Shown here in pieces: positions 1-32,000 of a DNA stretch of 32,000 bases (positions within the stretch are counted from its first letter, which is position 1; the number at the start of each line of letters is the position of its first letter). Made by a program: the position numbers and the translations under genes. Below the pieces are notes generated by a model, which worked only from the letters and a program-made list of their open reading frames with translations, was not told the DNA's origin and did no database searches. The DNA comes from Candidatus Omnitrophota bacterium (GTDB lineage Bacteria; Omnitrophota; Gorgyraeia; Zapsychrales; JANLHA01), in NCBI GenBank assembly GCA_963662715.1, contig OY759724.1:1110001-1142000 (forward strand), read 5' to 3'.

Positions 1-3000
1 CAAAACATACGCCGCGCACCTTAGCGGAAAATTCTTTTCTGAAAGATTTCCCTTCCTCTTCCATAGTCCTGTTAAAGGCACCGGCGACCGCCGCAAATGT
101 ACTCATGTTAGACTCCAGAGGAATGCTCCAGCTGCCGATTTCAAGCCGCCCAAACCTTCTAAATTTTTGATTGCTTTGTTTTGCGCCTCCCTTTACTCTG
201 GGTTCCCCCACCGGCGAACTGGTATTATCTGTTTTACTTAACCTTGCCGCTTCGGGTTGGATAATGCCTAAGGCCACCAGTTTTTCATAAAGGGCCTTTT
301 CCTGAATGCCCAAAGCTTCGGCAAGCTGCCCTCTCGACAGAACTTGATGGTTCGCCTCAATGAACCGCAATTCCTCCTTCTTCCTCTGAATCTCAGCCGT
401 GGTTTTTCCAAGATCAACAGCCAGTTGGGCTTCATCCTCTTCCCTTCGCCTTGAGAGTTCTGCCTCTTCCTGATTCTGCCATTTATGCAGTTCGATATCC
501 TCGTTAATCAATCTTCTCATATATCTGCGGTCGGCTTTATGTTGTCCGCTGTCCTCCCATCCGTATGCGGCATAGATGCCCTCAAGACCTTTCTCAAAAT
601 AAATATCAGCGATCACTCGAAAGCCCTCCAGCATATTCTCGATGATCGCCACCGGCTTCTTAAAATGAACAGCCAGAGCCTTTGCATCCTGGGCTCCATT
701 GGCCACAAACAGACGCCACAACAGTTTTCTTTCTTCCCGGCTCCACCGGGTATATTCAAACCAGGTCAGCCTCATCTTGATTGCACTCGTGTTCCATTCG
801 AGATCACCGGCCAAAGTGGCATTATTCAATTCCGCATAATGGTTTCTGATATAAGCTAATTTTTCGAGCTGCTGCTTGGTTGTTTCAACATCCTTCCTGA
901 TCTGAGCAGCTAACTTTTCTGTCTGCTCGGGCGCGGGCATCTCGCCATACGGCAGACTCTCTTTAATCCACTGAATCAATATTTTCTCCTTGGCAGGGTC
1001 CCATTTTCGCCTTCCCTGAGGACCGGCTTTCCTGACCTGCGGGGCAGGGGCGGCAGCACTATGAGGGAGTTCTCCTTCCTGGACTCCGGCGGTATCTTCT
1101 GGTTCTGATGGCGATAAAGCTTCTGCTTTCGACGGGATATCCGGACAAATTTCTGTAGGAACAATATTATTGAGGACAAGACCGGTGATGTCCAGATAAT
1201 CTTCCCCGTAAAATTCATTGATAGAAGACATCCGGGAAAAGAGAACATATCCGTGCCAATTCACGGACACGACCTGCTGCCGGGACTGATTGAAAATATA
1301 AAACGTCCCTTTCGAGCCGTACCGGTAAAAATATTTATTTGCGGCCTGTTGCCCTTCGGCCTCTCTTTCGTTGATGGTTTCTTTGATCTTCTTTTCGTGT
1401 GCACGTGGATCACGCTGCCTATCAATCTTAAAGTCCCTTTCTCCCCGCAAAACGGCCACGATATCCCGGCTTAACCCCGCGTTAATCTTTCCGGCCCCGA
1501 TCTTATCCGCCGCGCCAAGAACATGAGCGGCAAAACCTTCCTCCGAAAATTCCAGAATACGCATCACGTCACCCAGAGGCCCAACGACAACAACTAAAAA
1601 TCTTTGGCCCTTTTCCAAATAAAAATGTTTATAAAACCGCGTCGCACCGCTTCTGTCCTGATAACGGCTCCCCCGGAAAACTTTCCCTTCCCTTAAAACA
1701 TGGGCAATATTGGAAATCACTTCTTCTTCATTAACAATCCTTCTTGCCTGAATATCTGCCCCGAAATACGTATCCCCGGTTCTGGCATGATTATTCACAA
1801 GCATTTCGCCAACCCGCTGCCATCCAAAAGGCCGTTTCCCGCGGTAAGAGGGGTACCCCTGGAATAAGACACAGACGTCAGGGACAACAACTTCCCTTCC
1901 TCTGTGTCGGAAGATCAGCTCCAAGCCTTGCCTTTCCACAACCGCAAGCGGCAGGAACCATCCGCTCTGAATCTCCCGGGTTAAACCGACCGCCTTTATC
2001 TCGGCTGCAAATTTCTCATAAGCCGCCGCATCACTCGCTTCATGCCTTTCCGTCCCCTTTACCGGTGAACTGGTCGGCTCGACCGGGCTTGATGCCGTTT
2101 TATCATCATAAGGGATCCGCAGTCTTTCCTGAAAAGCAAGCTGGTTCATTGTTCCGCTCCGGACCTGCGAGAGAAAATACTCCAGTTTATATTTACTCAC
2201 ATGCAGAGCTGTTCTGCCGCGGCTTTGCGACAGGAAGGACAGATACAGACGCGCGGCCACGCCCTGAATGATACCAAACTCGTATTCCATAAAATCTTCC
2301 ATAAACGCCTTTGTCAGACCTTTAAACCGGCCCGTCGCTCTTCCGTGCCGTATATATTTCTTCGCCTTAAGCCGATTAAAGACGCTGTGTGCCTCCTCTC
2401 CCAGCAGACTCAAGAAGCTGTCGGCGGAAATCGCCCGCTCATATTTCTTGTGTATGGAGGCAAAACGTCCTTTATGCTCTATAAGAACCTGCATAATGAC
2501 TGTCTTGGCGAACATAGCCGTCAAAATTTTCATAACATCAAAATTCTTAATAACAGGTTCACCCGGTTCTTCTTTACCGAATTTCTCATAATACATCCGG
2601 CCTATTTCTAATTTAACAGCCTCTGCCAGGTGCGATAGATAAATAAACCGGGCGCCTCCCCTCCACGGGACAAGAATGACCGGGATTTTCTGCGATGCAA
2701 ACCTTTGGTAAAGCCGCTTCAATAAAGGCTGATCCGATACAATTTCCATGAGGGAATGTCCGGCAAACGGAGCTTCCCGCATGACGGACATGGCTTCGTC
2801 CAACCGGTTCACCTCCGGATAAGCAGCAAAGATATCCTGCGCTTCTTGTATCTTTTTAATTACGACATGATAGCGTCCCAGGAATTCTTTCATCCTGGCG
2901 AAATCCGAATTGAGCCTTCCCCAGCGGGAGACAATATCCATCAAATCAGCCGTCAGCTGTCTGGCCCACAAGAGATCTTCGTACCACTGAGTCTGCCGCC

Positions 3001-6000
3001 GCTCTAAAACACGTTTTCTAAACCGCTCGATAGCCCCCGGTTTTCTTCGGGCCCGGTCATTTTTGCCGTTGAACAGTTTATTCACGGTTATCTCCTTAAA
3101 GCCATGGCTCTCCGCAACGGCTTTATAAGGCTTCCCTTCCAAAAGCCTTTGTCTGACGAAAGACATGAAGACATCCCTATCCACAGCCGCAGTGATAAAT
3201 TCATGGCCAATCTTCTCCGCGACTGTCATCACCTCCGTCTCCAGTCCCGCCAGCTGCCCGGCGAGCTGCTTCAAGATCCAGTGCGGCTGTTGTTCCACGA
3301 TGTGTCTCATTAAATGCCGGGCTACAGATACTTCCTGCATATCCGTGGCCATGGCCGTCAGGACAAACTGTTCGGGAATAATCCGCAGATGCTTCCTTAA
3401 AGTCGTCCATTTCATTCCCATTTTCTCCGCCAACTGTCTCCGCGTCAGCTTTCTATCATCCTCCAAAGCCTCGACAAGGCGGAGAAAATACCGTTTCTGA
3501 ACATCCCGGCCCTGCCAGTTGTCTCCGACAGCCTGCATAAGTTCAAGAAGGTCGGAGTCCCAGTGATCAATAATAAACGCAAACAGTGTTTCTCTGCGTA
3601 AATCATAAAACCTGTCAATCAAGGCGTCCCGCAACTCTGAAGGAGAGACTTCAAATATTCTCTGATAAAGGCCTTTCATGGCAAAAGCCTTGTCAATCCG
3701 TCCGAGCAAGGCCCGGGTGACCATACTCACGCTGACGCCCTCCTCCCTATGGGCAATAACTTCATCCAGCTCGGCGACCGACACGACAGCCCGCGTGACA
3801 GCTTCATTCAGGATGTTATATTCGAAATCACTGATAATCTTTTCCGTCCTCGCTTTATTTAATTTCAGAATTATTTTCTGCGGGGGATAAGAACGGATGA
3901 CCTCTCTGAGCCAAACACGTTCCGGAGTTAAACGTTCAATTTTCCGAGCCTTGATTTTGACCGTCTGGGCTCCTTCATCCTCTACGGGAGAACTCTGCCT
4001 ATCCGGAGCTTTGGGAGCCCCGCTTGTCTGCATCTCTGATAAGACCCGGGTCATAATGACCTGCCCTATGACCTGACGGAACGGAGTTGGCCGGTACGGC
4101 GCGGCTTCCTGCAGGAGCTGTGCCATATCGCCCTGCCACGGCCGGATCATGTTTGAAAAGGTCAATTCGTCCTTCATCATTTGTTGAGGTTTCATAAGAT
4201 GGTTCTTAGCGTACTCTGACATATAATCCGCCGCCCAATGAGCGTCATTAAAATCACGCTCAAAATCTTCAACCGCATCGGTGTCAATGACGAGATATCC
4301 TCCTGAAACCAAAGGTTCGGTCAGGACCTGGACTGTTTTTTCGCGATCATCATCTTCATCGACTTGAATTTTATCCTCGGCTTTCAGTTTAAAATACCGG
4401 ACCGGCAATATTCTCAAAATAAGCAGGCCGTCACTCTGAATCTTGATATAATTCCCTCTCACGTGCTGATAGGTAAAAAGGTTTCTCAGTTCCGGCATCT
4501 CCTCGCCGTCCTGATTGCGTATCACAGGCTGACCGTCATCCGCAAACTTGACCTTGTATAGAACGTCATTCTCATGGTCCAGCATCGTCAAATCCATTCC
4601 GGAATCCTGGGTGACAAGCATCTCCTCCTGGGTAAGTGAATAAATCACCGGCGTCATACTGTACGGCGCATCCCGGAAAGCCTCCTGAATATTCTTCGGA
4701 ATAAAGGTTGTGACATAATCAATCCTGTCCGCCAGCGTCTTTTCAGCCGCTGAAGACCGGACCGTTTGTTTAATGACCAACGTCATCCGGTCCAACATCT
4801 CTCTCGCCGCCGGACGGCCATGAAAACTTCCGATAGCTTTAACATTACACCCGTCAAATCTGAAGACAGCCAGCTTGCCTTCCCGGGCGTCCCACAAAAG
4901 AACCGTAAACTCATCAGACTGCCGCCCCATCCTGAAAGTAATATCAAAATTCTGGCTCAGAGGATGCTCCCCGCTCAGTCTTTCTGCCGGGGAAAGGGAT
5001 CTGCGGTCGTACGCTAAAAGCATAATATAGTTTATGATTCTCCGCAGGTTGGAATAGCCGGTAAAGACATTGTCCCGTCCTCTGATCATCTCGCTGCGGT
5101 AAATGATTCTCCGCTCGATGATGGTGCGCAAAGTCAGTTCAATACGCGAAGGATCTTCTGCCTCCAATGCCTCTTGATATCTTTCAATAAGATCAAAGAT
5201 CGACTCCTGATATAAAGAACAATAATCGGAAACAGCATCAAAATCATTCAGTTCATAAGCCAAACCGTTCCGGGCAATTCTTTTTATTTCTTTCGCATAA
5301 TACGGGGAATACGTTCTTATTTCGCTCCTCCGTACGGAATTGATGCTTTTCTGCAGCTTTTTGATAATCTGCGCCCGCTTAACAAAGGCGGTTTCGCTGT
5401 CCTGCTCCTCTTCCAAAGAGTCTAATTGAGCGGCGGCGTTTTCAAAATAACTGGCATATCTGAAATGAACAACATTCGCCGTCTGAACAGCCTGCTCATG
5501 CAAACGGTCTGCCATCATGAGAGCTTCCTCTTGCGTTGTCAGGTCCCCTCTGAATACGGTTGACAGGCCTCCGTACATATTGAAGTCTTCCGGAGTGAAA
5601 TTATCCAACAACTCCCTTATCCCCGAACGCTTCTTCACCCCTTCAATCACCTGCGTCCGGAATCCCGGCTTATCATCGATGATATCCTGAATCCATGACT
5701 CCGCATTGTACGACATGTCGGCTTCTTCCTCTTTGTAACGGAAAATAATATAAAACGTCGGGCCCTCGTTAAATACGCTGAAATTCAACCCATCCGTGAT
5801 CAGTCCTTCATCCCTGGCCTTTTTGATCATTCTTATCAAAGAGCCTCTCAATGCCGAGCGGATAACCTTGGCCAAAGCGATTGCGCCTAATTTATGGCCA
5901 ATACCCAGATTTTCTCCTCTTGTATTAAATTGCCGCTTAAAGTCATGCCCTTTTAAGACAGCAAGCTGTACACCCCCATGATGCCCTTTCAGGAACTGAA

Positions 6001-9000
6001 CCAGATGTTCGGCAAATGAAAAACGGCTTGTCATCTCGGGCAGTTCTTGAAAAGCCCCGTTCTGGGTTTTTATAATGTCTAATAAAGACGGGGCAGAAAT
6101 CGGGCTGCTTTGCGTCAGCGACTTTTCATAGCCCTGCAAAATATCGGCAACAGCTATCTGCAGATAATCATAAATCTGAATTCCTCTCTTCATGCGCGTC
6201 CTGATTTGTTCTTCATGCTCTGCTATAGGGTTGTTTTCCGGCCGGCAGATTTCCAGCCATTGAACATAACGCCGATACTCTCCATACGACCCCATGATAA
6301 TCGTGTTCTCAACCTGCGGATGGAACGCATGCGGGGCTCCGAACTGGCTGCTTGTTCCGTCAAGAAAATAAACCGGATCATCATGAGAATAAATCAAGCC
6401 CAAGGTATGGCCCTGAGCCTCCAGCGTTTCGGTAATCCCGTAACCAAAAACTATTTCAATCCTATCCGGCCCCTGGTCGACCGCAAGGCCATATATTTCG
6501 GACAATACTCTTACCAAAATATAGGCCGATAACGGACATAATCCCGCCGGGAAACCCCGCTCTGTCTGCAAGGCAAGAATCTGATGTAATTTTCTCAAAT
6601 GATCATTATGCCGGGCGTTGATCTGGCTCAAGGTGTCGGGTAAAGTCGGTAAATAAACCAGCGGAGAAGAAGCCCCCGGGAGGGCAAGACCCCAAGCAGG
6701 GACAGTCACAATACGGAACGTTTCCGCTTCCGGCAGAAGATGTTCTCCCTCACCCTTTCGGGAATCCCCTGTCCCAAGACGATATCCCGATATTTGAAGC
6801 ACATCCTCTTTTCCTCTATTGTGTCTGTCCCCGCTATTTAATTTTCTTTCAGCCGAAATTCTTTCCGGCATAAGCTGCAGAGAATCATGGCCCTTCTGAA
6901 TTTGAACCGGGCTGGAAGCCACAGGACCGCTTTGATCAGACGACGATCCTGGCTTATCTGTTTCATCGCGCCGTTTTTCATATTCGGAAACAAGATGCCC
7001 CATCTGCCCGGCAAGACGCACAGCGCGTGTATAGGCCCACGGATACCGGTAAGAGCGGTCAACGACCTTTGACAATTTTGCAACCAGTTCCTGAGCGTCC
7101 CGGGCCGGTTGTTTGAACCATAACGACAAAACTTTCTGAGCATCGAGATGGATACGCTTTTGCGTTGTTTTCATAAGCGTCTGTATTAAGACCCGCTTCA
7201 ATGTGTAAATATCCTTATACCTGAACGGCATTGAATAAGGCCGGTCATAATCAATGAGTTTGACATCAAAATTGGACAAGACCATCACATTGTGCAAGTG
7301 AACATCCGTGTGACTCATCCCCCTGGAGTGGAAGTAAGCCAAGGCTTGAACCAGTTTAAATAACACATTCAGAACTGTACCGAAATCCCAGGTGTCGATA
7401 TCTCCATCTTGTATGATGGCCTCAAGGTCTTTTCCTTCTACAAATTCCATGACGACAAACTGCCGGGAAAGACCATCCATGATGACCTGCGCATAATCTA
7501 ATATGCTCATAACATATTTGAACCGGCCTATCTTGTTAATAAGCTGTTGCAGTTTTTTCGGATCAAACCTTTTGCGTGCTTTTGCTTTTTCGAGTTTTAT
7601 GGCGACGAACTCTCCGTCTTCCTTCTCGGCTTTATAAACCCGGGCATTGCCGCCGACAGATAACTTATCCAAGATTCGATATCCCAGAGGCAAAAATGCT
7701 TCCCGGATACTCGCTTTTTCTTTTTGTGTCTCATCCAGGACTAATTGATTGACGCGCTGGTGAATGACGTTAGACGGATGGTGTTTTTCTTCAACATGAT
7801 TAGGGTCTTCAAATGAAGCGATATAGGTCAAGGCCGCCCGTTTCGCTCCGGGTTCAGGGAACTCCACGTCAAACCTGAAAAGCAGATCATCCGAGGAGAA
7901 ATAAACCTCCAGTTCACCCTGTTTATTAATACTGCCGCCGATGAACTCATCCCATCCCGGCATATCATTGATGACCCTGAATTTGATTTTCCGGCCTTGA
8001 TATTCCGGAACGAGCCTATTAAATTCTTCAAGGTCCGTGTACCCCTCCTTCCTGATATACTTCTGCATTGTCGATAATATACGTGCATCCATTGTTCCAA
8101 TAAACGGAGTCCAATGGCCGCCTCTTTTAAACTCATTCCATTGCGTTGCTCCGGGAGCGCTCTTTACCGGAGAGCTCGAGACAACCATCTCGTGCGCAAT
8201 AACAATTTTCGTGCCGTGCTCAACCGGGGTATTCCTTAAAACAACTTCTTTTTCGTTGAGCCAGTCCGTATTCTTGTTCTTTTCGTAATAATAAGCCCGC
8301 GGTTTCTCCGTCACACGATCAACCGTGGTGACAGAAACAGCATCATACTGATCCATAATGACAGGAAGGCCGATGCCAAACATCCCTCCGAAACCAGGAC
8401 TTTCCTCCCATTGCACAGCCTTATGAACCGGCAGATGACGGAAAGTGACTCTGTTCACAAATCCCCGGCCGCGGTCTAAAATCACCGCTGTCAATTTCCA
8501 TCGCCCGGACGGCCCCGTTCCCCAGCGCATGAGAAGCGCTCCGTACCGGCCTCCATGCTGTTCAATATTCTGCACGCCGGCCCTGACACCGGTCAGGATA
8601 TCGCTCATATTCCGGCAGAAGTATGGGTTGTGCGGCATCGCCCTGTCTGCGAACGTCTTAACAAATTCGTACAATTCATAGGCGGTCCCGATTCTGATCA
8701 CCTGATTTAGTCCGGTTGTATCATAATCCGTTCTAAAAACAGCCTGCAGTTGATTCCTGATCTGTTCCGCCTTTTGCGGACTCTTTTTGTTTAAACTTCG
8801 CCATAATTGGAGGATATGATCATTTTCCTCTAGTGTAAAAATCCGGCTTTCCAGCATATCCGCCTGAGATACGGGAGAACTCCCGATATCCTTGTCATCT
8901 GCAAATACGTCCCGGGACATAACTGAAGCATCTTCATCTGAACTTAAGCCCCACTCACCGGAAATTTCATATTCCCGGATAATTTGATTCAAATAATCCA

Positions 9001-24000: not shown

Positions 24001-27000
24001 TATCCCAATTCTTCCATTCCGGGGAAGCCTCAAAATGTTCCTTTAACTCCAGCCGACTCGGGGCCTGGCCTGAATATTGCGGGTAGTACCCCGGCCTTTC
24101 TTGGACCGCGTTCAGAGGAATCACCACCGGAGCTATAGAAGCATAAACTTGACGCCGCACTCTGGCAAACTGATCAGCGGTCAGATCTAAAATAAAGGAA
24201 AGACCGGCAACCTCGACAATCCAGAATTCATGAAAATCAGAATGCAGTAAAGCGCTCACAACAGATTTAAAGGCATGGACCTTGGGGATTCTTTCTAACC
24301 TAATCTTCACCGTCCGGTCTTTCAAAAGATTCAATTTCCGGACTTGTTTATTCGTGTCGTCGCAATACTGCGCTATCTTTGTCTTTCGTATTCTTGCACG
24401 ATAATAATCTTCAATGACCGGCTGATTCCAATCCTGAATCAAAGCAAAGAAGGCCTTGATGTCTTCCCGCTGTTTCGAATCAAGTCTTGTTTGACCGAAC
24501 GCTAACTCAACGGCACGGCGGAACGCATCCCGGCCCAGAACCCGGCAATACTGTTGCGGGATGAACGGCTGGTATCCGTATTGATCCTTCAAAGCGGCGG
24601 CGATGATTCTGAGGTTAATCAGGTCCTGCTCCCGCTCATAGATATTCAGCAGCTGTTCCATCCTTATAGGGTTGTTGCCTTTCGCCGCCACAAGCCGTTT
24701 GATGACTCTTCTTCTTTTCTCAACGCCTTCCGGCAACCGATCTTCCCGTACAGGCGAAGAGGTCGGCTTGTCCCCGTCATCCGCCTGACTCCGGCCTTCA
24801 GCCTGATCTCTTCGGATTTTTTCCAGTTCCAGGGTATATAACTCTGCCATCTCTTTCGCAAAATATTCCGTTATCTCCGCCGGGAGCTTCAAGCGGACAA
24901 TAAAGGCGATACTTTGATCAAGATATTTTTCCGCTGATTCAACGCTGCGTTTATATCTCGGGGTCTGATTGTTGTGCAGTCTGTCGGCAAATTTGATTAA
25001 TTTCACATCCAGAGGCGCTTCATTGACCAGGCGATCCAGATATTCTTCATCCGTTTCTCTCGGGCTCTTTGTCAACATCTCCACTTTTTCCAAGACCTTC
25101 GCTCCGAGATAATAGGCGATTAACGATCGCAACTTCTCTCTTTTATATTCGCTTTCCGCATCTTCAATGGCATCATGCAACATAGCGACAGCAACCATCT
25201 CTCGCCAGTCCAGGTTATGAGAAGCCAGCAACGGATGATACGTTCTTAACAGATCAAACAATATTTTCACGACCGTGAGAGGATGCACCAGATAAGGCTC
25301 CCCATTGGCACGGACTTGTTTCCTGTGGGCAAAGAGCGCGATATACAAGATCATTTCATATTTAATAGCTTTTGTCCCGGGATAAAGCGAGTTCAGCTCT
25401 TCCTTGGCGTCTTTCCACAATGATCGGGCCTGTTTCGTCAAAGATTTATAGTCATAGTACCGGAAAATCTTTTCATACATAAAGACAACTGTTTCCACGG
25501 ATGTATCATCAACAACAAACATATTCGTCCTGCGGGTGCCCTGTAATTCCAAAAGGCCTGACTGAGCAAACCATTTTCTAGCCGTTGTGATCAGACGCCC
25601 ACCGACATAAAGATGTTTGATCAAATTCCCGGCCACAATGCTCGTCACAAACTGGGTCTGGGTCTCATAATCTTTCTCTAAAATATATTCTTTAAAAATA
25701 TACGTGATCAAATGAAATTGGCCGAATGTTTCCATATCATCCATATCCGTGAGAGATTCGATATATATGGGGTTAATAATCTCTCGATATTCCTCTTTCA
25801 GCTGATATGTCTGGCCTTTGACTCTTTCAAAATATCTGTCTCTTAGGCCTTGATTCATCTCGTTCAGATCCCCGAACCATTCCTGAGAGTATTGGCCTTC
25901 TAAAGCCTGCCGAAGCGCCTGCTGATCCGAGTCAACCGCTGTAATTTCCAAGGCTTCAAGAGGGATGCTGGAATGTTCCAAAATTTCAATAAGCATCTTG
26001 TGGGCAATCAGTTTAGGCCCGTCTCCGAACAAAGACACGCCCTCCGCGGCAAGAATCCTTATTTTCTGTTCGCCTCCCTTTTCTTGCAATTGACTGTAAA
26101 CACTTTCCAGATAGGGGATGGACTCTCTGATCTGTTCCGCGAAGCCCTCTTGCTCCCAGAAGTACAGTTTTCTCCCCGGCTTCCAGATATCTTTAAGTTT
26201 CCGGACAATAGTCTGTTCCGGAATTCTCATATACTGCAGAATCGCCCGGATTTTATCTGTCCAATAGGAATCTCCGGAAGTGTTGTCATCCGGGTTTTCA
26301 ACCGGAGAAGAACCGTAACGGCCCTGATGTATCTGCGTTTTAATCCTGTTTTCGATCTGATCGGCGGTATCAACACTTCTGAAACGCTGAACATCAGCAG
26401 GAGAAATCATCCCGTAACCCAACAGTGTTGTCTTAAAGATTTCTTCCCAATTGCTCCAGAACTCCCGTCTGACGGGTATCACAGAAAGCCCGGAAACTTT
26501 TCTGGTCTGAACCAGAGTCAAAGCTTCCATAACGGTATCTATGGTGTCTATGGCATCAGGAAAACTGAGGATGAAATCGCTATAACTTATAATAAACGTC
26601 TTCCTGATGAACTGGTGGGTCAGGCCAAGATCCTGGTTAGTACCGTCCAGAGAATCGTCCGTGTTCCCGTTAATGGGAATAAACTGCGCCAAAAAGTGTC
26701 TTCCCCGGTAATCATCTTTCGCCTGCAGATAGCCTTCTCTGGCCGCCGCCCCAACGCCTTTGGTCTCGGGCACAATAAGAGAAATCCCTTGGGAAGCTAA
26801 ACGGCGGGATATTTCCCTGGCCGTATCCATATCATCCGAATTGATCACCCGGGTTGATCCCAGGACCGAAACAATCGGTCCGGGCGTCAACCTCAGCTTT
26901 CTCATAACCCGGTACATTTCCCGGCGGATAAGATTAATGTCAATTTCAAAAACATCCCGGCTCTTATTCTTTTCTAAATGACTACTGATCGTACTCAAAA

Positions 27001-30000
27001 TACGGTTGGCGTTGCCATCCAAACTCACCATGTCCCAAGGACTGTTTAATAAATATCCGTTGATATAATCGCGGGCCAATTGCTCTATCACCTGTTCCCA
27101 GAACGGCAGGGCAATAAGCGGTGTCGCTAAATCAATGGCGCCCTGTTCCTTCAAGGCGAGCATCGTGTAAAGTTCATTTAAAGTTCCGACTCCGCCGTAC
27201 TCAAATACGCCTGCTTTGGCAAGTTTCACAAAAGAGACCAGCCGGCTGAAGAAGTACTTGAAAGCCAGTTCTCTGTTAACGTACGGGTTTGAAGCCTTCT
27301 CACGAGGCAGCTTTATTCTCAGCCCTACCGAATCAGCGCCCGCTTCACACGCGCCTTTATTGGCTGACTCCATCACGCCCGGGCCGCCTCCGGTAATAAC
27401 CGGGTATCCCAACAAAGCCAGCTCTCTGGCCAATTGTTCAGCGAAAACAGATGACTTTCTGGCTGAGCCATAAAAAGCCACGCCAGGCTTAACCTTTTTC
27501 ACTTTCTTGTGTAGTTTGATCTCTCTGACACCTCCGCTGATAAAACCGAATGAGAAATCTTTTCTGCCGTTCCAGACTTTATCCTGTACCGGTGAACTGG
27601 CGACATCATCCGCAGATTTCTTCCTTAAAACAACATGCAGGACACCGTCAAAATTCATCCCTTCCTCTTCCGTCAATTCCCTGTAATCATCCGCTTCCCA
27701 TTCCATAATACCCTTCCGCTCGCTGATCCGTTTCTCTCCGCGAATCGAAACAATTTCAAAATTATTTCCTTTGGCCGTATTTATGAGTTGTCTCTGACTT
27801 TTAATGCCTTTTTCGCTAAAGGCTGTCTGTCGTCCCTGTGTGATATCATTCTGGACAAGGACCACGGCTCCCGGCAGAAGCCCCTCAGATAGCTTTCGGA
27901 AAACCAGATCCGCATCCACATAATTCAAGACATGAGAAATAATCACCGTATCACATAAACCATAAATATGGGAAAGCGGCCCGCGATGACCTCGGGATCC
28001 AAAGAACTGCTTCACTCGCAGGATTCCGCTCTTTTTCGTTCTTTCCGGATAATGAGCGTCTCCCCGCAAAAAGAGGACGTTCCCCTGCCGGAAGAATCCG
28101 TTTCCGACGCCCCTATCAAAGGAAACGATTCTCTTGTCCGGGAACATCTTGGCCGACAGCGGATTATTTTTCCCGCCTATTTCGAGAATACGTGTCCCTA
28201 AAACGCCTTTTTCTTCGAGTTCCTGAAGAAGATTTTCAAAAGCAAAATTATACCCGAATCCTTTATTATTCCAATTATCGACAAAGATCAATTGAACAGT
28301 TTCTTCAGCGAGCGGGGCCCTTGTCCGTGTCCGTTGGTCGTGCATAACCGGGCGCAAACGAATCACAAGGTTCTCTGCCCCGTAACGCAGTTCCATATAA
28401 GGCTGCCCGCCCTCGCAAAGCCGGACTTCAATGCGTTCTTTATCCTGACGGAACAAAAATGCTTTATAGAACACCGCGGACTTCCCTTCCGTTCCTGCGG
28501 ATCTCATCGTTGTCACCCGATAGTTCGGGTCGATGTTTTGCGGAATATGTTTATGGAAAAATTGAATGATGGATATCATTTCTGCCGGGATATATCCCTG
28601 GACCATTAAAGTTCCGACCGGGCCTTCCGCCTGGGCCGTTCCCATAAGCATCTTTCCGGTCTCGAGACGGGCATAAACATGATAAAAGACCTTCCGGGGA
28701 ACTTTAGGATTGATATAAAGTCTTAACACAAACTTTAATCCTGTCTCCGCATCAAATGTCTGGACAATCCACCTTTCTCCTTTAAAGCGCTGCCCGGTTA
28801 AATACAGTTCACCCAGGACCGGGATACGGCCCTTCGTGTGCCGTACGCCCCGGAAGAGGCCCATTCCTTTCAGGTAAAAAACAAGGCGTACAGACTGCGG
28901 GGTGAATTTAGCCATCGCGGCCTGAACGCGCCGTGTTTGCAACAAATCAAGAACGATCTTTTCATCTGCCCGGCCGTAAAGACGCTTAAATAAATCGCCC
29001 AGCCCGCTCTGGTTAAACTCTTTGACAAATTCGGATAAAGTTAAGGCATATCCCTGATAAATTTTTAAATACCGAATCAGCAAGCCTTTTTGGCTCTTTC
29101 CATATACCGGGTTCTCCGCCTGCATTTCCGACGACCATTCCTGTCTTCCGGGGTTCGTAAGCGGTGAACTGGTGATGGGGAAGTCAGGGACATCAACCGG
29201 TGAGAGATGCCCGCCGGCCTTCAGCAAGATTTTTCTAACCAGAGAGAAATCCATGAAAGACTCCAACTGCGATTCGGCCAATTCCTCCGGATCCAGCAGG
29301 AGAACTCCGCCCAAGGCCACGTATTCGGAAGGCTTGGAATAAGCGTGCTCCAGGCACATTTTCCAAAGCAGGCCAGGCACCATATAAATATCATTTGAAA
29401 TAATTTGTCTGAACTGCTGTCCCGGCCAGAATCCGTCCACAACCTGTGAGGCCATCTTCAGGGTTGCAGGGACATGATCCACCGTTAATTTATCGCAGAT
29501 ATTAACCCAGACATCTGAGCCGTCGACACCTGGAATCTTCTTCTCCCAATTCCAGTCCCGGGAATCCCTGATCATGCTGAGAGGCAAATGCTCTGCGCGG
29601 ATTCTTTGGCCTGCATCGGATATATATCTAAAGCTGGCCTGTTCAATAAATTCTCTCCACGCCGTTAAAGGAACTTTCCGGTAAATAAAGACATGCAGAA
29701 ATTCCTCTACAATACCCGAAATATCGACGCTGCCACCGGAAACTTCTATCCCTACAATGGAAGCATCGGAGTTCCAGAAAGACCGTCCGAGGACAAAAGC
29801 CAGCTTAACATCTGTCAAATGAGCTGAAATACTCTTGGGGAACCGATCCAAAACTTCCGCGACGGCAGCTAAAACACTCAAATCCACATCGTCAAGATTA
29901 AGGGGCATGACGCCATAAGAGGATATCTTTCTCAAATACCGGCTTCTTAACCTTATCGATTCCGTGACTGGAGAGCTGGAAAACGCCCGGCTCTTTGTCG

Positions 30001-32000
30001 CCTCAGCTATAAAAATATCCGACGTCCGGCTGTGTTTTATAAGTCTTCTGAGCTCTCCCTGGACAAAATGTTTATTCGTGCGGGCATTCGCGGCGCGGAG
30101 AACCCGAGATAAAATATACGCGAATTGTTCTTCATTGAGATGTTGCATAACGTCCCGGTCAGCCATCGCGGCTAAAAATCCCTGCAGCTGCCGCCAGTCC
30201 GGTGTGGCCAAAACGCATTCGGAAAGGATTCGGACGTTTTCTGCGGGGTTATCAAAAGTGAACCAGCTGGCCATAGCATCGGCCACGCTAAGAGGATCAT
30301 GTCTCTGGACCTTCTGCAGGACGGAAACAGCAGCCTGATTCTCCAGGATATGGTCGATGAAGGAAGCAACGCGATGATCGAGCCGGTAATTGATACGGGC
30401 TAAATACGCTTTCAGGGAAGGAATGACAGAAGGAATGGTCGCAGGGCGATAAACAAAATGGTACGGCCTGCTGGAATCCAGATACGCGGTGATCCAGTCA
30501 AAGACAGAAAACACTTCGGACAACATATTGTTATTGGAAGGCCGGTGATGGTTTAAGATAATATGCTTCTCGGAATCGCTCAAAGAAATGGCTTCGGCCT
30601 GTATCCTATCCACGGACCCGCTGGTGTGCACAAGGGTGATATGGGCCCGCTGCTCATCGAACAATTCTCCCGGATAATTGACCATAGGAAGTATGGAGCT
30701 CTGCCCTTTGCCGAGATCGTGCATCAGCCCCATTCTCCAGAGCATATAAATGTCCTCTTCCGGCAGATCAAATTGGCGGCCGAAAATAACACCCAATTCT
30801 GATACGGCCTCTCCATGCCGCCAAACGTTTAACATGCCGGACCGGTACAAAGATCTTAATAAAGACTTTTCTTTCGACCACAGGGACACATCGATCGGGG
30901 AGCTGTTAACCTGCTGTGTTTTAGCCCGGACCGGCTTCTTGTGACGGAAAAGAATAACGCCTCCTTCGATGTAATCATATATAGTTTTGACGTCCTGATG
31001 CGTTGCCCTTTCAACTTGTTGCCCGAGAAGCCGTAACTTTCCTGCATCAAATTCCTGTTCATGAGAGGAAACCGATCCCTCATGGTCTTCCTCAAACGGG
31101 ATGGAAACAACTAGCGTCCCGCTGACAACTTTTAACCAATCCAGGATATATTCCAACGGAGTTTTATTCATTAAATGTTCCAGGACATGATTGACAACCA
31201 TAAAATCAATAAGCTCCCCTCCCAGGGTTGTTCTCACGTGTTGGACAAAACCCGGATCATTGACATCAGCAACAACCCACTGCGCATCCAACTGAGGATA
31301 CGAAACAGCTTGCTCAACAGCAAATTTCATATCCGTCAGCTTATGATCTAACCCGACAAATTTGACTCTTCTAGAAAGCTCTCCGGGCAGGAGATTAAAA
31401 GCCGTAAAGATAAAATGGCCAAAGCCCGTGCCCAGGTCTGCCACGCGAAGCGTTCTATCCGGATTTGCCGTTAAATCTTTTTGTAAGGCCATGATGGCAA
31501 CAGCGTAAATCCAGCTAAAATGCTGGATGTGACTATAATCCGGCCCGTTCAATTGATATTGCCGATAACGATATTTCTTCCTTCCTGTTATCAACGCCTG
31601 TGTTTGCTCTTCAAAAGCTTTTTGTGAATTTCTGAAGAATTCCGCCAAAACATCATCCATCGCCGCTTCCCGGCCTAATTTAGTCCGGTTCAGCCAGGAA
31701 ACAAGCTTGAGGATTAAACCTGAGCGACTTATATCTTGTCTTCTTGCCCGTCGGCTTTGGGGCACTCGCAGAAACCCTTTTCCGAACAAATCCTGCGCTT
31801 CAATACGTTGCTGCCAGACACTGTCCCGGTCAATAAGCCTTGCTGCCTGATTTTGGCTATTCACAAAATAATGGACAGCACGCCGCACCTGCCCATGGGT
31901 TAATGTCACCACTTGTTCCGCCTTTAGCAGTTCCATTTCATGGCCGGTATAGCGTGTCTCTATATTTTGTTGTTTTAATATCTCATCGAATTTTTCCGGA
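1..32000 (-). CDS. Internal fragment (>=10,666 codons) of a single giant multidomain ORF, partial at both ends; in-frame codons span 2..31999
   Basis: No ORF-track entry lies in the minus frame with first codon base = 1 mod 3, consistent with no stop in that frame. Hand translation at both edges (31999: PEKFDEILKQQ...; nt 2: ...FSAKVRGVCF) and at more than 30 anchor motifs across the window is all in this frame and protein-like. The other five frames hold only short ORFs. Confidence 0.9.
209..220 (-). other. SSP[VILM] inter-module motif (TSSPV)
   Basis: minus codons agt tcg ccg gtg, in frame. Confidence 0.85.
2060..2071 (-). other. SSP[VILM] inter-module motif (TSSPV)
   Basis: minus codons agt tca ccg gta, in frame. 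Confidence 0.85.
2081..2092 (-). other. SSP[VILM] inter-module motif (ASSPV)
   Basis: minus codons tca agc ccg gtc, in frame; first of a tandem pair ASSPV-EPT-SSPV. Confidence 0.85.
3385..3455 (-). other. Helix-turn-helix-like segment
   Basis: DRKLTRRQLAEKMGMKWTTLRKHLRII has a classic HTH residue pattern. Similar segments: EGKPYKAVAESHGFKEITVNKLF (about 3075..3145) and LSRGQLAEALGIQEKALYEKL (about 270..345). Confidence 0.3.
3983..3994 (-). other. SSP[VILM] inter-module motif (QSSPV)
   Basis: minus codons agt tct ccc gta, in frame. Confidence 0.85.
6098..6109 (-). other. SSP[VILM] inter-module motif (QSSPI)
   Basis: minus codons agc agc ccg att, in frame. Confidence 0.85.
6350..6560 (-). 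other. Candidate Cys-His-Asp (transglutaminase/papain-like) catalytic core
   Basis: GFPAGLCPLSAYILVRVL (Cys codon 6536..6538), 43 aa later GHTLGLIYSHDDPVYFLDGT (His 6407..6409, Asp 16 aa later). Spacing and local context resemble GxCxxxA...H...D transglutaminase-like cores. Weak, based on motifs only. Confidence 0.3.
6659..6670 (-). other. SSP[VILM] inter-module motif (ASSPL)
   Basis: minus codons tct tct ccg ctg, in frame. Confidence 0.8.
6749..6781 (-). repeat. Mini-repeat RLGTGDSRKGE (copy 3)
   Basis: Plus strand ctcaccctttcgggaatcccctgtcccaagacg; lies in a 78-aa module between two SSPx motifs. Confidence 0.75.
6905..6916 (-). other. SSP[VILM] inter-module motif (ASSPV)
   Basis: minus codons tcc agc ccg gtt, in frame. 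Confidence 0.85.
7240..7685 (-). other. Domain: protein-kinase-like fold, RIO/Kdo(WaaP)-like atypical kinase
   Basis: YRILDKLSVGGNARVYKA + EFVAIKLEK (Gly-loop and VAIK Lys, about 7600..7680); VVMEFVEGKDL hinge; catalytic loop GMSHTDVHLHNVMV; VKLIDYD (DFG equivalent, about 7245..7320). No APE or long C-lobe is seen. Confidence 0.6.
8165..8179 (-). other. SSP[VILM] inter-module motif (VSSSPV)
   Basis: minus codons tcg agc tct ccg gta, in frame. Confidence 0.85.
8320..8650 (-). other. Domain: GHKL/HATPase_c-like ATPase (RsbW/SpoIIAB or histidine-kinase catalytic type)
   Basis: N-box-like AGVQNIEQHGGRYG (about 8540..8580); G1-box AVILDRGRGF (about 8465..8495); G2-box SPGFGGMFGIGLPVI (about 8360..8400). 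Confidence 0.55.
8870..8881 (-). other. SSP[VILM] inter-module motif (GSSPV)
   Basis: minus codons agt tct ccc gta, in frame. Confidence 0.85.
9790..10050 (-). other. Possible cytidine/nucleotide deaminase-like zinc-binding motif pair
   Basis: GRHAHAEINLI (H-A-E = 10025..10033) and INLTTCQHCAEVL (C-Q-H-C = 9800..9811). This resembles H[AC]E...PCxxC of the CDA fold, but the spacing is about 71 aa (canonical about 25-35) and Thr replaces Pro. Confidence 0.3.
10745..10756 (-). other. SSP[VILM] inter-module motif (QSSPI)
   Basis: minus codons tcc agc ccg att, in frame; only 11 aa after the previous motif. Confidence 0.85.
10790..10801 (-). other. SSP[VILM] inter-module motif (QSSPV)
   Basis: minus codons tct tcg ccg gtt, in frame. 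Confidence 0.85.
10802..11956 (-). repeat. Paralogous module B (385 aa) of the tandem duplication
   Basis: LSEIETVF..RKFSQPIEFGVYLIA..FSHILVP; KNQQADHSLGFAHVHNSFTKAEKE; LTLLSPQD..SVL; MGQRWFDIA..LKDFRK; ends in QSSPV. Divergence is protein-level (roughly 30% identity by eye), so this is an ancient duplication rather than a DNA repeat. Confidence 0.8.
11957..11968 (-). other. SSP[VILM] inter-module motif (ASSPI)
   Basis: minus codons tct tcg ccc atc, in frame; sits exactly at the junction of paralogous modules A and B. Confidence 0.85.
11969..13195 (-). repeat. Paralogous module A (409 aa) of an internal tandem duplication; unrecognised domain family
   Basis: Shares ordered blocks with module B: LNEIEEVF..KGFAKPIQFGAYIIA..FTHFIMP; ANQQANQELGYVHLHYSYTKAERK; LTLLTPKD..SVL; IGQRWFDVN..MKDFRE; ends in ASSPI. 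Confidence 0.8.
13196..13207 (-). other. SSP[VILM] inter-module motif (VSSPV)
   Basis: minus codons tcc agc ccg gtc, in frame. Confidence 0.85.
13290..13740 (-). other. Domain: class I SAM-dependent methyltransferase (copy 3, Methyltransf_11/25-like)
   Basis: GRRILSVGSGRGELE (VGSGRG = 13655..13672); VKAIDVVPEMV; FDLVIFPYSVEHI; ARRVLKNGGKLLIIG (about 13395..13440). Confidence 0.8.
13874..13885 (-). other. SSP[VILM] inter-module motif (ISSPI)
   Basis: minus codons tca agc ccg atc, in frame. Confidence 0.85.
13973..14008 (-). repeat. Mini-repeat MNLGTGELMKGE (copy 2)
   Basis: Plus strand ctcacccttcatcaattcccctgtcccaaggttcat; 54 codons downstream of copy 1 in the same 121-aa module. Confidence 0.8.
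14135..14170 (-). repeat. Mini-repeat MNLGTGDSEKGE (LGTG[DE]xxKGE copy 1)
   Basis: Plus strand ctcacccttttcagaatcccccgtcccaaggttcat. About 80% identical in DNA to copy 2 and in frame with the giant ORF. Confidence 0.8.
14249..14260 (-). other. SSP[VILM] inter-module motif (VSSPM)
   Basis: minus codons agt tct ccg atg, in frame. Confidence 0.75.
14999..15010 (-). other. SSP[VILM] inter-module motif (VSSPV)
   Basis: minus codons tct tct ccg gtc, in frame. Confidence 0.85.
16109..16120 (-). other. SSP[VILM] inter-module motif (QSSPV)
   Basis: minus codons tca tcg cct gtc, in frame. Confidence 0.85.
16140..16400 (-). other. Tetratricopeptide (TPR) repeats, about 2-3 units
   Basis: ALNQIGHIFAGQSLWPDAEKVFARVMNIDSRNTEALNGLAETAWRQGHAEDAMKTYQHVLSIDPANREAQEGLNRL shows the typical 34-aa TPR periodicity (A/G/Y/P pattern). 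Confidence 0.6.
16740..17985 (-). other. Domain: GT-B fold glycosyltransferase, family-4-like
   Basis: N-terminal KLRIAFVAFSFPPVMGGVNIV (about 17925..17985). C-terminal EX7E-type block LLFPSWMETFGIPLIEAASVRTGVIASDL (about 16905..16990). Confidence 0.7.
18230..19520 (-). other. Domain: GH63-like (alpha/alpha)6-barrel glycoside hydrolase (mannosylglycerate hydrolase / glucosidase-I-like)
   Basis: GFYEAFWIWDAAFAALAL (about 19265..19320); NPDGGL; GLCEWKDALESGWDNSPRWD (about 18962..19020); FYWRGPVWLNLAYFMVD (about 18440..18495); YEYYNSQTGRRGEG...DFSWSAA (about 18250..18345). About 450 aa upstream (19520..20866) could be the N-terminal beta-sandwich. Confidence 0.7.
20867..20884 (-). other. SSP[VILM] inter-module motif (QSSSSPV)
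   Basis: minus codons tct tcc agc agt cca gtt, in frame. Confidence 0.85.
21100..21540 (-). other. Domain: HD superfamily phosphohydrolase (copy 3, HD-GYP/HDOD-like context)
   Basis: LHILEHATAVVLLGTYIAHELGL ... LRLAGLAHDLGKLE (H-D = 21392..21397) ... MLSHGQSALKLL ... IELHRGG. Confidence 0.6.
23954..23968 (-). other. SSP[VILM] inter-module motif (GSSSPI)
   Basis: minus codons tct tct tct ccg att, in frame. Confidence 0.85.
24749..24760 (-). other. SSP[VILM] inter-module motif (TSSPV)
   Basis: minus codons tct tcg cct gta, in frame. Confidence 0.85.
24900..25370 (-). other. Domain: RelA/SpoT-type HD domain ((p)ppGpp hydrolase-like)
   Basis: FAHRKQVRANGEPYLVHPLTVVKIL; VAVAMLHDAIEDAE (H-D = 25172..25177); VKLIKFADRLHNNQT (about 24975..25010). 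These match the three signature blocks of SpoT/Mesh1 hydrolase domains. Confidence 0.75.
25450..26150 (-). other. Possible degenerate CheR-like/Rossmann methyltransferase-like region
   Basis: IRILAAEGVSLFGDGPKLIAHKMLIE ... ITAVDSDQQALRQALEGQYS ... FHLITYIFKEYI ... LYVGGRLIT resembles the CheR layout, but the canonical residues are absent. Confidence 0.25.
26300..26311 (-). other. SSP[VILM] inter-module motif (GSSPV)
   Basis: minus codons tct tct ccg gtt, in frame. Confidence 0.85.
26420..27495 (-). other. Domain pair: LOG/TIGR00730 (PpnN-like nucleotide 5'-monophosphate nucleosidase) Rossmann fold, followed by a degenerate second copy
   Basis: GVAFYGSARK; PVITGGGPGVMESANKGA (GGGPGVM = 27371..27391); FEYGGVGTLNELY (27182..27202), i.e. 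the GGGxGxM and PGGxGTxxE LOG signatures. A second half (IVSVLGSTRV ... LIVPETKGVGAAAREG ... SFPDAIDTIDTVMEAL) repeats the layout with degenerate motifs. Confidence 0.65.
27587..27598 (-). other. SSP[VILM] inter-module motif (ASSPV)
   Basis: minus codons agt tca ccg gta, in frame. Confidence 0.85.
27740..28210 (-). other. Domain: SAM-methyltransferase-like Rossmann fold (copy 2)
   Basis: GTRILEIGGKNNPLS (ILEIGGK = 28169..28189), VSFDRG, CDTVIISHVLNYV and LLPGAVVLVQ in canonical MTase order. Confidence 0.5.
29159..29170 (-). other. SSP[VILM] inter-module motif (TSSPL)
   Basis: minus codons agt tca ccg ctt, in frame. Confidence 0.8.
29966..29980 (-). other. SSP[VILM] inter-module motif (SSSPV)
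   Basis: minus codons tcc agc tct cca gtc, in frame. Confidence 0.85.
30400..30860 (-). other. Domain: HD superfamily metal-dependent phosphohydrolase (copy 1)
   Basis: VWRHGEAVSELG ... WRMGLMHDLGKGQ (H-D codons 30716..30721) ... ILNHHRP. This is the typical H...HD...H pattern of HD domains. Confidence 0.65.
30893..30904 (-). other. SSP[VILM] inter-module motif (NSSPI)
   Basis: minus codons agc tcc ccg atc, in frame. Confidence 0.85.
30990..31600 (-). other. Domain: class I SAM-dependent methyltransferase fold (copy 1)
   Basis: Motif I RVADLGTGFGHF (VADLGTGFG = 31418..31444), then KFVGLDHK, WVVADVND, FMVVNHVLEHL and GTLVVSIPFEED (about 31085..31140). Order and spacing fit a Rossmann-type MTase. 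Confidence 0.7.

Follow-up and report, generated by a model that had tools for sequence, protein, structure and literature searches.

The 32,000-nt window analyzed here (Candidatus Omnitrophota bacterium, assembly GCA_963662715.1, contig OY759724.1, positions 1,110,001 to 1,142,000) is spanned by one minus-strand reading frame, whose product is divided into protein-sized modules by a short recurring peptide motif, Ser-Ser-Pro followed most often by Val or Ile (SSPx). Codon first bases of this frame lie at plus coordinates equal to 1 modulo 3, and from nt 31999 down to nt 2 there is no stop in 10,666 complete codons. In a six-frame translation, the other five frames contain 286, 465, 540, 538, and 621 stops, or one per 17–37 codons, and their longest open run is 298 codons. 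TAA, TAG, and TGA are all missing from the giant frame, so a recoded genetic code is not needed to explain it. The GC content at codon positions 1, 2, and 3 is ∼0.55, ∼0.37, and ∼0.52 in each 1,000-codon block, and this uniformity indicates that the frame is coding over its whole length. Over hundreds to 2,400 residues, three stretches of the translation are 43%–62% identical to independent sequences of the Omnitrophota type. This is a real, very long coding frame, and chance is excluded as its origin.

A sequence-only reading of the same DNA had described a minus-strand frame free of stops across all 32 kb and absent from a list of 21 minus-strand open reading frames (ORFs). Both statements hold: the scan for in-frame stops found none, and the 21 ORFs, of at least 60 aa, all have upper coordinates equal to 0 or 2 modulo 3; the list omits ORFs that run off both window ends. 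The frame is open at each edge, with neither start nor stop in view, as had been reported, and the proposal that the gene exceeds 32 kb gains support from a related locus, L004. The first residue of the window translation aligns with the interior of the L004 ORF (aa 3334), which continues for 3,333 open codons farther upstream. Together with the read-through, this makes it very probable that the gene extends past the window on both sides.

SSP occurs 26 times in the window protein, against 1.6 expected. SSPV accounts for 16 of these occurrences (0.11 expected) and SSPI for 6 (0.10 expected); the 22 instances of SSP[VI] compare with a mean of 0.19 and a maximum of 3 in 2,000 shuffles. The permuted tripeptides are not enriched (SPS 3, PSS 0), and we therefore reject pure Ser/Pro compositional bias as an explanation. 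Within 21 aa around the motif, the hydrophobic fraction is 0.21, compared with 0.35 at random positions, and 0 of 5,000 resamplings came as low as 0.21. On either side, S, P, Q, K, T, D, A, and G are overrepresented and aromatic and aliphatic residues underrepresented. The motifs of L004 and of two related proteins, P0022 and P0008, also lie in hydrophobicity minima. SSPx is an ordered motif, x-S-S-P-[V/I/L/M]-x, in short hydrophilic linkers joining consecutive modules. The window contains 22–25 such SSP[VILM] junctions; the one SSPR (aa 6886) lies inside a domain, at about chance expectation. The motifs that the sequence-only reading had translated by hand between nt 209 and nt 31444 probably include SSPV, the last of which is at nt 209–220, though SSPV was left uninterpreted there.

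Splitting the chain at SSP[VILM] yields ∼24 modules, with units of 125–1,586 aa (median ∼400) plus two doubled linkers, and these unit sizes are those of ordinary bacterial proteins. The linkers themselves appear to duplicate, as seen in the doubled junctions of the window and in L004, where three tandem 30-aa repeats each carry SSSPVS (aa 4112, 4142, and 4172).

Relatives of this protein are few. Word-index searches with 5,000-aa queries returned one match each, P0001, a 3,108-aa partial protein from a Candidatus Omnitrophota metagenome-assembled genome (MAG), and P0002, which shares the methyltransferase module only. This type of search is insensitive, having missed P0003 (62% identity over 951 aa), which was recovered only by exhaustive search. 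A scan of GTDB representative genomes gave one locus, L004, the closest long relative. It covers 21,095 nt of a MAG contig of 41 kb, which bears the title “uncultured Planctomycetales bacterium,” and is likewise a single fully open frame (7,031 codons); no match was found among the metagenome contigs and viral contigs scanned. An exhaustive HMMER search with aa 2682–3881 against 1.84 billion representative proteins recovered 28 proteins only. The named homologs (P0001, P0003, P0006, P0007, P0012, P0019, and P0022) are all annotated as Candidatus Omnitrophota or Omnitrophica, the exception being L004, by its title. On the basis of these homologs, rather than of a marker gene, the organism is placed most probably in Omnitrophota, or at least in the PVC superphylum. 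The window protein itself is absent from a collection of 5.8 billion proteins, in which its final 1,328 residues (aa 9339–10666, nt 2–3985, minus strand) have no detectable homolog.

The motif recurs in some of these relatives, with SSP counts of 19 against 1.2 expected in L004, 9 against 0.5 in P0001, 38 against 1.9 in P0022 (a complete 7,051-aa gene at L005 56–21211), 15 against 0.55 in P0008, where most are SSPA, and 8 against 0.43 in P0006. P0014 and P0020 have three each, and ∼17 other long Omnitrophota proteins that share a ∼690-aa domain with the window have none. By this patchy distribution, the motif defines one subclass among the giant proteins, in which SSPV-like and SSPA-like variants occur.

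Conservation of the motif acts on the peptide. Within the gene, the motif is written with all serine codon families and with various proline and valine codons. At six orthologous motifs (window versus L004 or L001), 2–8 of 12 nt differ, including AGY/TCN serine switches, and the peptide stays SSP[V/I/L/M]. Such free codon variation around a kept peptide implies purifying selection on the peptide itself. A DNA-level signal, such as a recombination site or an RNA signal, is rejected as the cause on the same grounds. In alignments across junctions, identity collapses and indels accumulate in the linker, and SSP[VI] is kept; the junction at aa 3708 is also present in P0003.

The junctions are also where relatives differ in content. 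BLASTP aligns the window with P0001 in three blocks, aa 4871–5297 with 1–435, aa 5661–5921 with 437–696, and aa 7954–8368 with 907–1322. The internal ends of these blocks lie 3–12 aa from SSP motifs in both proteins (3–7 aa for the block containing module 11), and over P0001 and L004 together, block ends fall 0–12 aa from motifs in both partners. Two modules that lie side by side in P0001 are separated in the window by an additional one of 370 aa (aa 5297–5666). The LOG module and its L004 counterpart (aa 1468–1900 with 4260–4699) align at 57% identity over the whole stretch between flanking SSP motifs, with ends 0–3 aa from the motifs. L004 then passes directly from LOG to the homolog of window aa 2682 onward, after which the two chains are collinear for 2,461 aa at 57.5% identity. 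Neither of the intervening modules, 6 and 7 (aa 1900–2681), is clearly represented at this place in L004: module 6 is absent, and for module 7 BLAST does extend the next L004 block into the C-terminal part, with low identity there. Among the other relatives, the ∼690-aa domain in P0006 and P0008 and the HD domain in P0014, P0020, and P0022 end ∼5–48 aa from an SSP motif, and the two are fused in one unit in the window (module 8). Judged from these sequence comparisons, whole modules are gained, lost, or given new neighbors exactly at SSPx motifs between relatives, which indicates that the gene evolves as a string of cassettes.

One further arrangement bears on this point. In L006, a JGI metagenome contig, a separately called gene for a phosphoenolpyruvate (PEP)-utilizing enzyme (nt 562–3054) ends 19 aa after an SSPA motif, and the gene for the SSPA-type protein P0008 (3,816 aa, nt 3086–14536) starts 31 nt beyond it. 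This looks like a giant gene that has been split, or is not yet fused, at a linker, and it fits a view of the modules as gene equivalents. Neighboring gene pairs at nt 562/565 and 14533/14536 of the same contig overlap by 4 nt.

The modules and junctions are listed in Table 1. The identifiable modules are cytoplasmic-type enzymes and regulators, and about half of the modules and of the chain have no known family in Pfam or NCBIfam. There are ∼10 domain types in one to four copies each, including four methyltransferase-like domains and three HD hydrolases, one of which is of the RelA/SpoT type (the HD_4 domain of module 6, which matches the NCBIfam spoT_relA subfamily far below its cut-off). 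Module 1 is 40% identical to P0002 and 43% identical to L004 aa 3334–3792, and module 9 is 55%–62% identical to L004, P0003, and P0001. PADLOC returned mostly generic kinase matches, plus weak methyltransferase, HD, and LOG-like ones. The relatives carry NUDIX and adenylate kinase, also fructose bisphosphatase (FBPase) and PEP-utilizing enzyme; L004 has NUDIX and HATPase. The translation is non-repetitive. Tandem Repeats Finder reports one trivial 17-nt repeat, and at the protein level there are only two paralogous pairs, aa 6268–6680 with 6681–7069 (32% identity) and two HD regions. A repeat-built adhesin or a recent tandem expansion is accordingly rejected, there being no adhesin-type or tandem repeats.

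No convincing transmembrane (TM) helix was found in the 10,666 residues (Kyte-Doolittle, 19-residue scan; maximum 1.75). We read two marginal hydropathy segments as buried, one as the first β strand of the glycosyltransferase and the other as a helix inside a soluble module. Cysteine makes up 0.27% of window residues; it ranges from 0.08% to 0.64% in SSP-type proteins, and motif-free related long proteins overlap this range but go higher (0.06%–1.12%).

Table 1. Features of the giant reading frame in window coordinates, in order along the protein chain
Feature	Position (nt)	Strand	Basis or remark
Uninterrupted reading frame, 10,666 codons, no start or stop in view, internal fragment of a giant gene	2..31999	-	0 stops; uniform GC at codon positions 1/2/3; homology to Omnitrophota-type giant ORFs
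Module 1 (aa 1-368), S-adenosylmethionine (SAM) methyltransferase-like, N-terminally cut by window edge	30896..31999	-	Methyltransf_12 (aa ~183-287) E 2e-4, below Pfam cut-off
SSPI (aa 366), junction	30893..30904	-	
Module 2 (aa 369-677), HD phosphohydrolase domain (aa ~393-490)	29969..30895	-	Pfam HD E 3.9e-5; paralogous to HD at aa ~3466-3625
SSPV (aa 675), junction	29966..29977	-	
Module 3 (aa 678-946), no known family; C-terminal junction SSPL, less certain	29162..29968	-	No Pfam match
SSPL (aa 944), probable junction, less certain	29159..29170	-	
Module 4 (aa 947-1470), no known family	27590..29161	-	No Pfam match at E<=1
SSPV (aa 1468), junction	27587..27598	-	Orthologous to L004 aa 4260, 5/12 nt differ
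Module 5 (aa 1471-1899), LOG/TIGR00730 (SLOG) nucleotide-binding (aa 1512-1664)	26303..27589	-	Lysine_decarbox E 8e-19, LDcluster4, TIGR00730
SSPV (aa 1897), junction	26300..26311	-	Orthologous to L004 aa 4696 (SSPI); downstream neighbors differ between genomes
Module 6 (aa 1900-2416), CheR-like methyltransferase (aa ~2002-2084) and RelA/SpoT-type HD_4 (aa 2217-2346)	24752..26302	-	CheR E 9.5e-7, HD_4 E 1.7e-6
SSPV (aa 2414), junction	24749..24760	-	
Module 7 (aa 2417-2681), no known family	23957..24751	-	Pfam
SSPI (aa 2679), junction	23954..23965	-	
Module 8 (aa 2682-3710), ~690-aa uncharacterized domain (aa ~2685-3371), then HD (aa 3501-3619)	20870..23956	-	Pfam HD; exhaustive search
SSPV (aa 3708), junction	20867..20878	-	Kept in L004 (aa 5758) and P0003 (SSPI), flanks with indels
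Module 9 (aa 3711-5296), HExxHxxGxxE domain, MGH1-like/GH63 glycoside hydrolase (aa 4232-4586), GT4/GT1 glycosyltransferase, TPR (to aa ~5290)	16112..20869	-	Pfam/NCBIfam
Conserved uncharacterized domain (aa ~3715-3885), invariant HExxHxxGxxE at aa 3842-3852, nt 20444-20476	20345..20857	-	Alignments, AlphaFold2 (AF2)
SSPV (aa 5294), junction	16109..16120	-	Orthologous to P0001 aa 432
Module 10 (aa 5297-5666), no known family, extra cassette	15002..16111	-	Its two neighbors adjacent in P0001
SSPV (aa 5664), junction	14999..15010	-	
Module 11 (aa 5667-5916), no known family	14252..15001	-	45% identity to P0001 aa 437-696
SSPM (aa 5914), junction	14249..14260	-	Orthologous to P0001 aa 689 (SSPL)
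Module 12 (aa 5917-6041), no known family	13877..14251	-	No Pfam match
SSPI (aa 6039), junction	13874..13885	-	
Module 13 (aa 6042-6267), class I SAM methyltransferase (aa ~6105-6200)	13199..13876	-	Methyltransf_11 E 2.5e-17
SSPV (aa 6265), junction	13196..13207	-	
Module 14 (aa 6268-6680), no family, first tandem paralog	11960..13198	-	32% identity to module 15, E 7e-59
SSPI (aa 6678), junction between tandem paralogs	11957..11968	-	
Module 15 (aa 6681-7069), no family, second tandem paralog; one in-domain SSPR counted as chance	10793..11959	-	Paralogy to module 14
Doubled junction SSPV (aa 7067) and SSPI (aa 7082), 15 aa apart	10745..10801	-	
Module 16 (aa 7085-7709), weak cytidine-deaminase-like signal (aa ~7300-7415; H-A-E ... 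C-x-x-C)	8873..10747	-	dCMP_cyt_deam_1 E 0.016, Bd3614-deam E 0.022, both below cut-off
SSPV (aa 7707), junction	8870..8881	-	
Module 17 (aa 7710-7944), no family match	8168..8872	-	Pfam
SSPV (aa 7942), junction	8165..8176	-	Orthologous to P0001 aa 902 (SSPM), 8/12 nt differ
Module 18 (aa 7945-8364), Ser/Thr protein kinase (aa 8107-8252)	6908..8167	-	Pkinase E 7.9e-15; 57% identity to P0001 aa 907-1322
SSPV (aa 8362), junction	6905..6916	-	
Modules 19-20 (aa 8365-8446, 8447-8633), no family	6101..6907	-	Pfam; dividing SSPL (aa 8444) uncertain
SSPL (aa 8444), uncertain junction, context more hydrophobic	6659..6670	-	
SSPI (aa 8631), junction	6098..6109	-	
Module 21 (aa 8634-9338), no known family	3986..6100	-	Pfam
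SSPV (aa 9336), junction	3983..3994	-	
Module 22 (aa 9339-9972), weak helix-turn-helix signals only, no homolog	2084..3985	-	HTH_24 E 0.002, below cut-off
Doubled junction SSPV (aa 9970) and SSPV (aa 9977), 7 aa apart, SSPVEPTSSPV	2060..2092	-	
Module 23 (aa 9980-10596), orphan	212..2062	-	No family, no homolog
SSPV (aa 10594), junction	209..220	-	
Module 24 start (aa 10597-10666), cut by window edge	2..211	-	SSPV at aa 10594

Module 9 opens with a conserved domain of ∼170 aa that begins 8 residues after the SSPV at aa 3708 and carries an HExxHxxGxxE motif. The domain is kept in L004, P0003, and six further long Omnitrophota proteins, with at least three copies in P0024, and follows a common order, with an N-terminal AP[YF]xP, then APPxx[IV]x[IV]T[SA]D, and then the invariant HExxHxxGxxE. 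The spacing is that of the metzincin signature HExxHxxGxxH/D, with Glu as the third residue. The domain has no Pfam match and no sequence match in the PDB. An AF2 model built from 10 sequences (predicted local distance difference test score [pLDDT] 94.1, predicted template modeling score 0.89) consists of a small β sheet and a long helix bearing HExxH; the helix is interrupted at the Gly, and the Glu opens the helix that follows. Foldseek gave no significant match to this model (best E 0.46 against the PDB and 0.03 against BFVD), and the weak matches are mostly metallopeptidases, comprising selecase, jannalysin, IrrE/M78, M48, SprT-like, and a phage “Metalloprotease.” We regard the domain as a candidate for a new zincin-like metallopeptidase; if proved active, it would constitute a new peptidase family. 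P0022, a complete SSP-type protein, offers a second candidate protease in a Peptidase_M48 module.

An invariant short core with free flanks, present once per junction, resembles the sites of viral polyproteins and is unusual for passive linkers; this combination leads us to read SSPx as a processing site. With moderate confidence, we take the window to be an internal fragment of a giant gene of at least 32 kb, of the Omnitrophota type (PVC superphylum) and of the published “multi-enzyme” class, modular with SSPx junctions and read as a processed polyprotein. In such a scheme, SSPx would be recognized for the division of the giant translation product, a cellular polyprotein, into individual proteins; the processing protease could be one embedded in the chain, for which the HExxHxxGxxE domain (aa 3715–3885) is a candidate; and a small, host-dependent cell would benefit by expressing many enzymes together from a single transcript. 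Cleavage specifically at SSPx seems to us plausible, at somewhat less than an even prospect. We are more doubtful of the broadest form of the proposal, in which a subset of Omnitrophota would encode a large share of its ordinary cytoplasmic enzymes as a virus-like polyprotein. A dedicated protease, for which the HExxHxxGxxE domain is a possibility, would then cleave at x-S-S-P-[V/I/L/A]-x, and cassettes would be added and lost at the sites.

Several observations weigh against processing, which is proposed here from sequence. A short peptide conserved in each linker might just as well serve for modification, as a sequon, or for docking. The window contains no recognized peptidase family in Pfam. 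The HExxHxxGxxE domain matches no peptidase significantly in structure or sequence (Foldseek E 0.03–0.46 at best), and its presence in long Omnitrophota proteins devoid of SSP shows that it is not bound to the motif. The SSPL at aa 944 and that at aa 8444 are uncertain as junctions. Finally, no convincing TM helix and no SecA-like or C39 domain is seen in these 10,666 residues, whereas published Omnitrophota giants almost always have many TM helices and often one of those domains, although the gene continues past both ends.

These points leave room for an uncleaved megaprotein, a chain of beads on a string, possibly tethered to the membrane by parts outside the window, with SSPx as a feature of its linkers: an O-glycosylation or phosphorylation site, a place where a chaperone or partner docks, or a stiff proline kink isolating folding units. 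We regard this explanation, the main rival, as possible but less likely than not. It would account for the placement of the motif in hydrophilic, indel-rich linkers and accords with the Ser/Thr kinase module in the chain, conserved in two relatives, with the lack of an established peptidase family in the window, and with the published view of the giants as membrane-anchored single polypeptides in which cleavage is unresolved. Purely structural linkers in multidomain proteins, however, are usually compositionally biased and lack an invariant ordered core of three to four residues with free flanks, whereas here the core is ordered and SPS and PSS are not enriched. The motif also persists as the C-terminal tail of the separately called L006 gene, where a linker would be unneeded.

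A further alternative, which we consider improbable, is a multi-effector toxin of the MARTX type, in which enzymes would be delivered to prey or host by a predatory or episymbiotic bacterium and cut there at SSPx. The enzymes of the chain resemble an effector array (LOG, a (p)ppGpp-hydrolase-like HD, a kinase, methyltransferases, and a weak deaminase-like signal, with NUDIX and adenylate kinase in relatives), and Omnitrophota are reported to be host-dependent or predatory. Yet the window yielded neither a secretion signal nor RTX/GD repeats, and neither a cysteine protease domain nor a translocation region, and many modules are housekeeping-like (GH63/glycosyltransferase of the compatible-solute type in the window; FBPase and PEP-utilizing enzyme in relatives). 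This alternative is a sub-case of the polyprotein reading and no observation in its own right.

That the frame is an operon with lost stop codons, each module being translated from its own internal start after the linker, is very unlikely: module sizes are gene-like, and a relative has separately called genes at apparent linker positions, but the distance from the motif to the next Met has a median of 34 aa, compared with 27 aa at random positions, and so is not shorter, signals combining a Shine-Dalgarno (SD) sequence with a start near the motif (5/25 versus a random fraction of 0.38) are not enriched, and ribosomes arriving from upstream would still read through. We reject internal starts on the Met and SD-plus-start counts. 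Least credible of all is an artifact (misassembly by chimerism or collapse, a frame open by chance, or a pseudogene in decay), given the absence of stops in a window where other frames have one per 17–37 codons, the even codon statistics along the frame, the purifying selection at the motifs, and an order shared with independent assemblies for as much as 2,461 aa. Chimerism in particular is argued against by those statistics and by the 2.4 kaa over which the window is collinear with two independent relatives.

Omnitrophota commonly have giant ORFs longer than 20 kb (Seymour et al., 2023; PMC10066038). Proteins as long as 85,804 aa have been described, including an “Archaeovorin” type with glycosyltransferase (GT), methyltransferase, glycoside hydrolase (GH), peptidase, and NUDIX domains; their cleavage points were stated to be unknown, which blocked further analysis (West-Roberts et al., 2023; bioRxiv 10.1101/2023.11.21.568195). 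Others reach 147,155 aa, with a class 1 defined as “multi-enzyme metabolic clusters” (Nielsen and Lui, 2026; bioRxiv 10.64898/2026.06.07.730766), to which the Archaeovorin type is equivalent. As in Archaeovorins and class 1, the window presents a single ORF of tens of kilobases, diverse enzyme domains tiling the chain with no dominant repeat, much of the chain without a family, homologs in Omnitrophota MAGs, poor conservation, and very few relatives. Class 1 proteins have at least 10 kaa and many Pfam families, none dominant; ours has 10,666 aa, ∼10 domain types, and no tandem repeats. With respect to the Archaeovorin domain set, GT1/GT4, four methyltransferase-like domains, and GH63/MGH1-like are found in the window and NUDIX in L004, and a peptidase is present as a candidate only. 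The published Archaeovorin set exceeds 90,000 bp, and the window is open for at least 31,998 nt with both ends outside.

There are also differences. Archaeovorins have numerous TM regions, and published giants of at least 10 kaa average ∼22 TM helices, with 94% having a TM helix or signal peptide, whereas none is convincing in the window, which is part of the gene. The SecA-DEAD, N-terminal C39 or S8, and HEAT domains of Archaeovorins have no Pfam match over our 10,666 aa and might lie outside the window. The SSPx junction motif with cassette exchange sets the window apart from both types: neither giant-gene preprint (West-Roberts et al., 2023; Nielsen and Lui, 2026) mentions linkers, the SSP motif, or cassette exchange at it, and the limited body of literature searched yielded no paper joining Omnitrophota with “polyprotein.”

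Beyond the Omnitrophota giants, there is a formal parallel with the polyproteins of picornaviruses, flaviviruses, and potyviruses, which share one ORF, protein-sized units, a short conserved junction motif with variable flanks, and possibly an embedded protease. The conserved motif at each junction has its equivalent in the 22–25 SSP[VILM] sites, placed at homology breakpoints and under protein-level selection. In contrast to these, the gene in the window is cellular and far larger, its units are metabolic and regulatory enzymes, its cleavage is as yet a proposal, and the candidate protease is unrelated to the viral 3C, NS3, and NIa proteases. MARTX toxins of Vibrio, in which an internal cysteine protease cuts the linkers between effectors, are similar in their unrelated enzyme modules, the shuffling of cassettes at linkers, and a producer thought to attack cells; the window differs in having no RTX/GD-rich repeats, cysteine protease domain, or type I secretion signal, a different linker motif, and largely housekeeping-like modules. 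The giant adhesin-type ORFs of Chlorobium chlorochromatii and other repeat-rich giant proteins share with it an extreme ORF length in a symbiotic or host-associated bacterium. They contain many adhesion repeats, and the window has no adhesin domains and essentially no internal repeats. The sequence-only reading had named Omnitrophota and C. chlorochromatii as bearers of this rare kind of ORF; all named homologs support the former, and the absence of adhesin-type or tandem repeats speaks against the latter. A nonribosomal peptide or polyketide megasynthase is rejected, since the Pfam and NCBIfam matches include no condensation, adenylation, carrier, ketosynthase, acyltransferase, or acyl carrier protein domains.

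The giant ORF as such is a further example of the Omnitrophota giants already described; the new part is its internal structure, that is, the SSPx-delimited cassette architecture and possibly the HExxHxxGxxE domain. The motif bears on the question of how proteins of 10,000–150,000 residues are made, folded, and used. SSPx supplies a testable processing hypothesis, with protein termini predicted at SSPx, and, if the polyprotein reading is true, it would furnish the first defined processing-site map for bacterial giant proteins. It also gives a practical way of dividing giants into units for structure prediction and annotation, shows evolution by in-frame gain and loss of cassettes, and defines a recognizable subclass, of SSPV and SSPA types, that can be traced across the phylogeny.

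Some minor features of the modules and relatives deserve mention. Modules 14–15 (nt 10793–13198, minus strand) are the only part of the ORF with raised GC at third codon positions (0.64 versus ∼0.52), with a GC content of 0.536 at nt 12001–14000, and these tandem modules may be a more recently acquired or duplicated cassette. Module 14 has no Pfam match and no PDB match in a profile search, and an AF2 model from a two-sequence alignment was unusable (pLDDT 33). The ∼690-aa domain of module 8 (nt 21887–23947, minus strand; aa ∼2685–3371) has conserved stretches FQGHDTRD and NPDYVP and occurs in only ∼17 of the 1.84 billion representative proteins, all of them long and all named ones Omnitrophota; some of the proteins with this domain carry signal peptides or TM segments. 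The apparent end of P0003 (L007, nt ∼2878–2889) is a 10-N scaffold gap and no stop, and the homologous frame resumes beyond it into the GH63 region. In the Omnitrophota relative L001 (nt 1–10128), the giant frame is open to nt 10128 though called as two same-frame genes (1–9323 and 9424–10128); the last ∼400 aa of its protein have an odd Pro/Arg/Trp-rich composition, and its C terminus overlaps the 3′ end of a convergent mutL by ∼65 nt.

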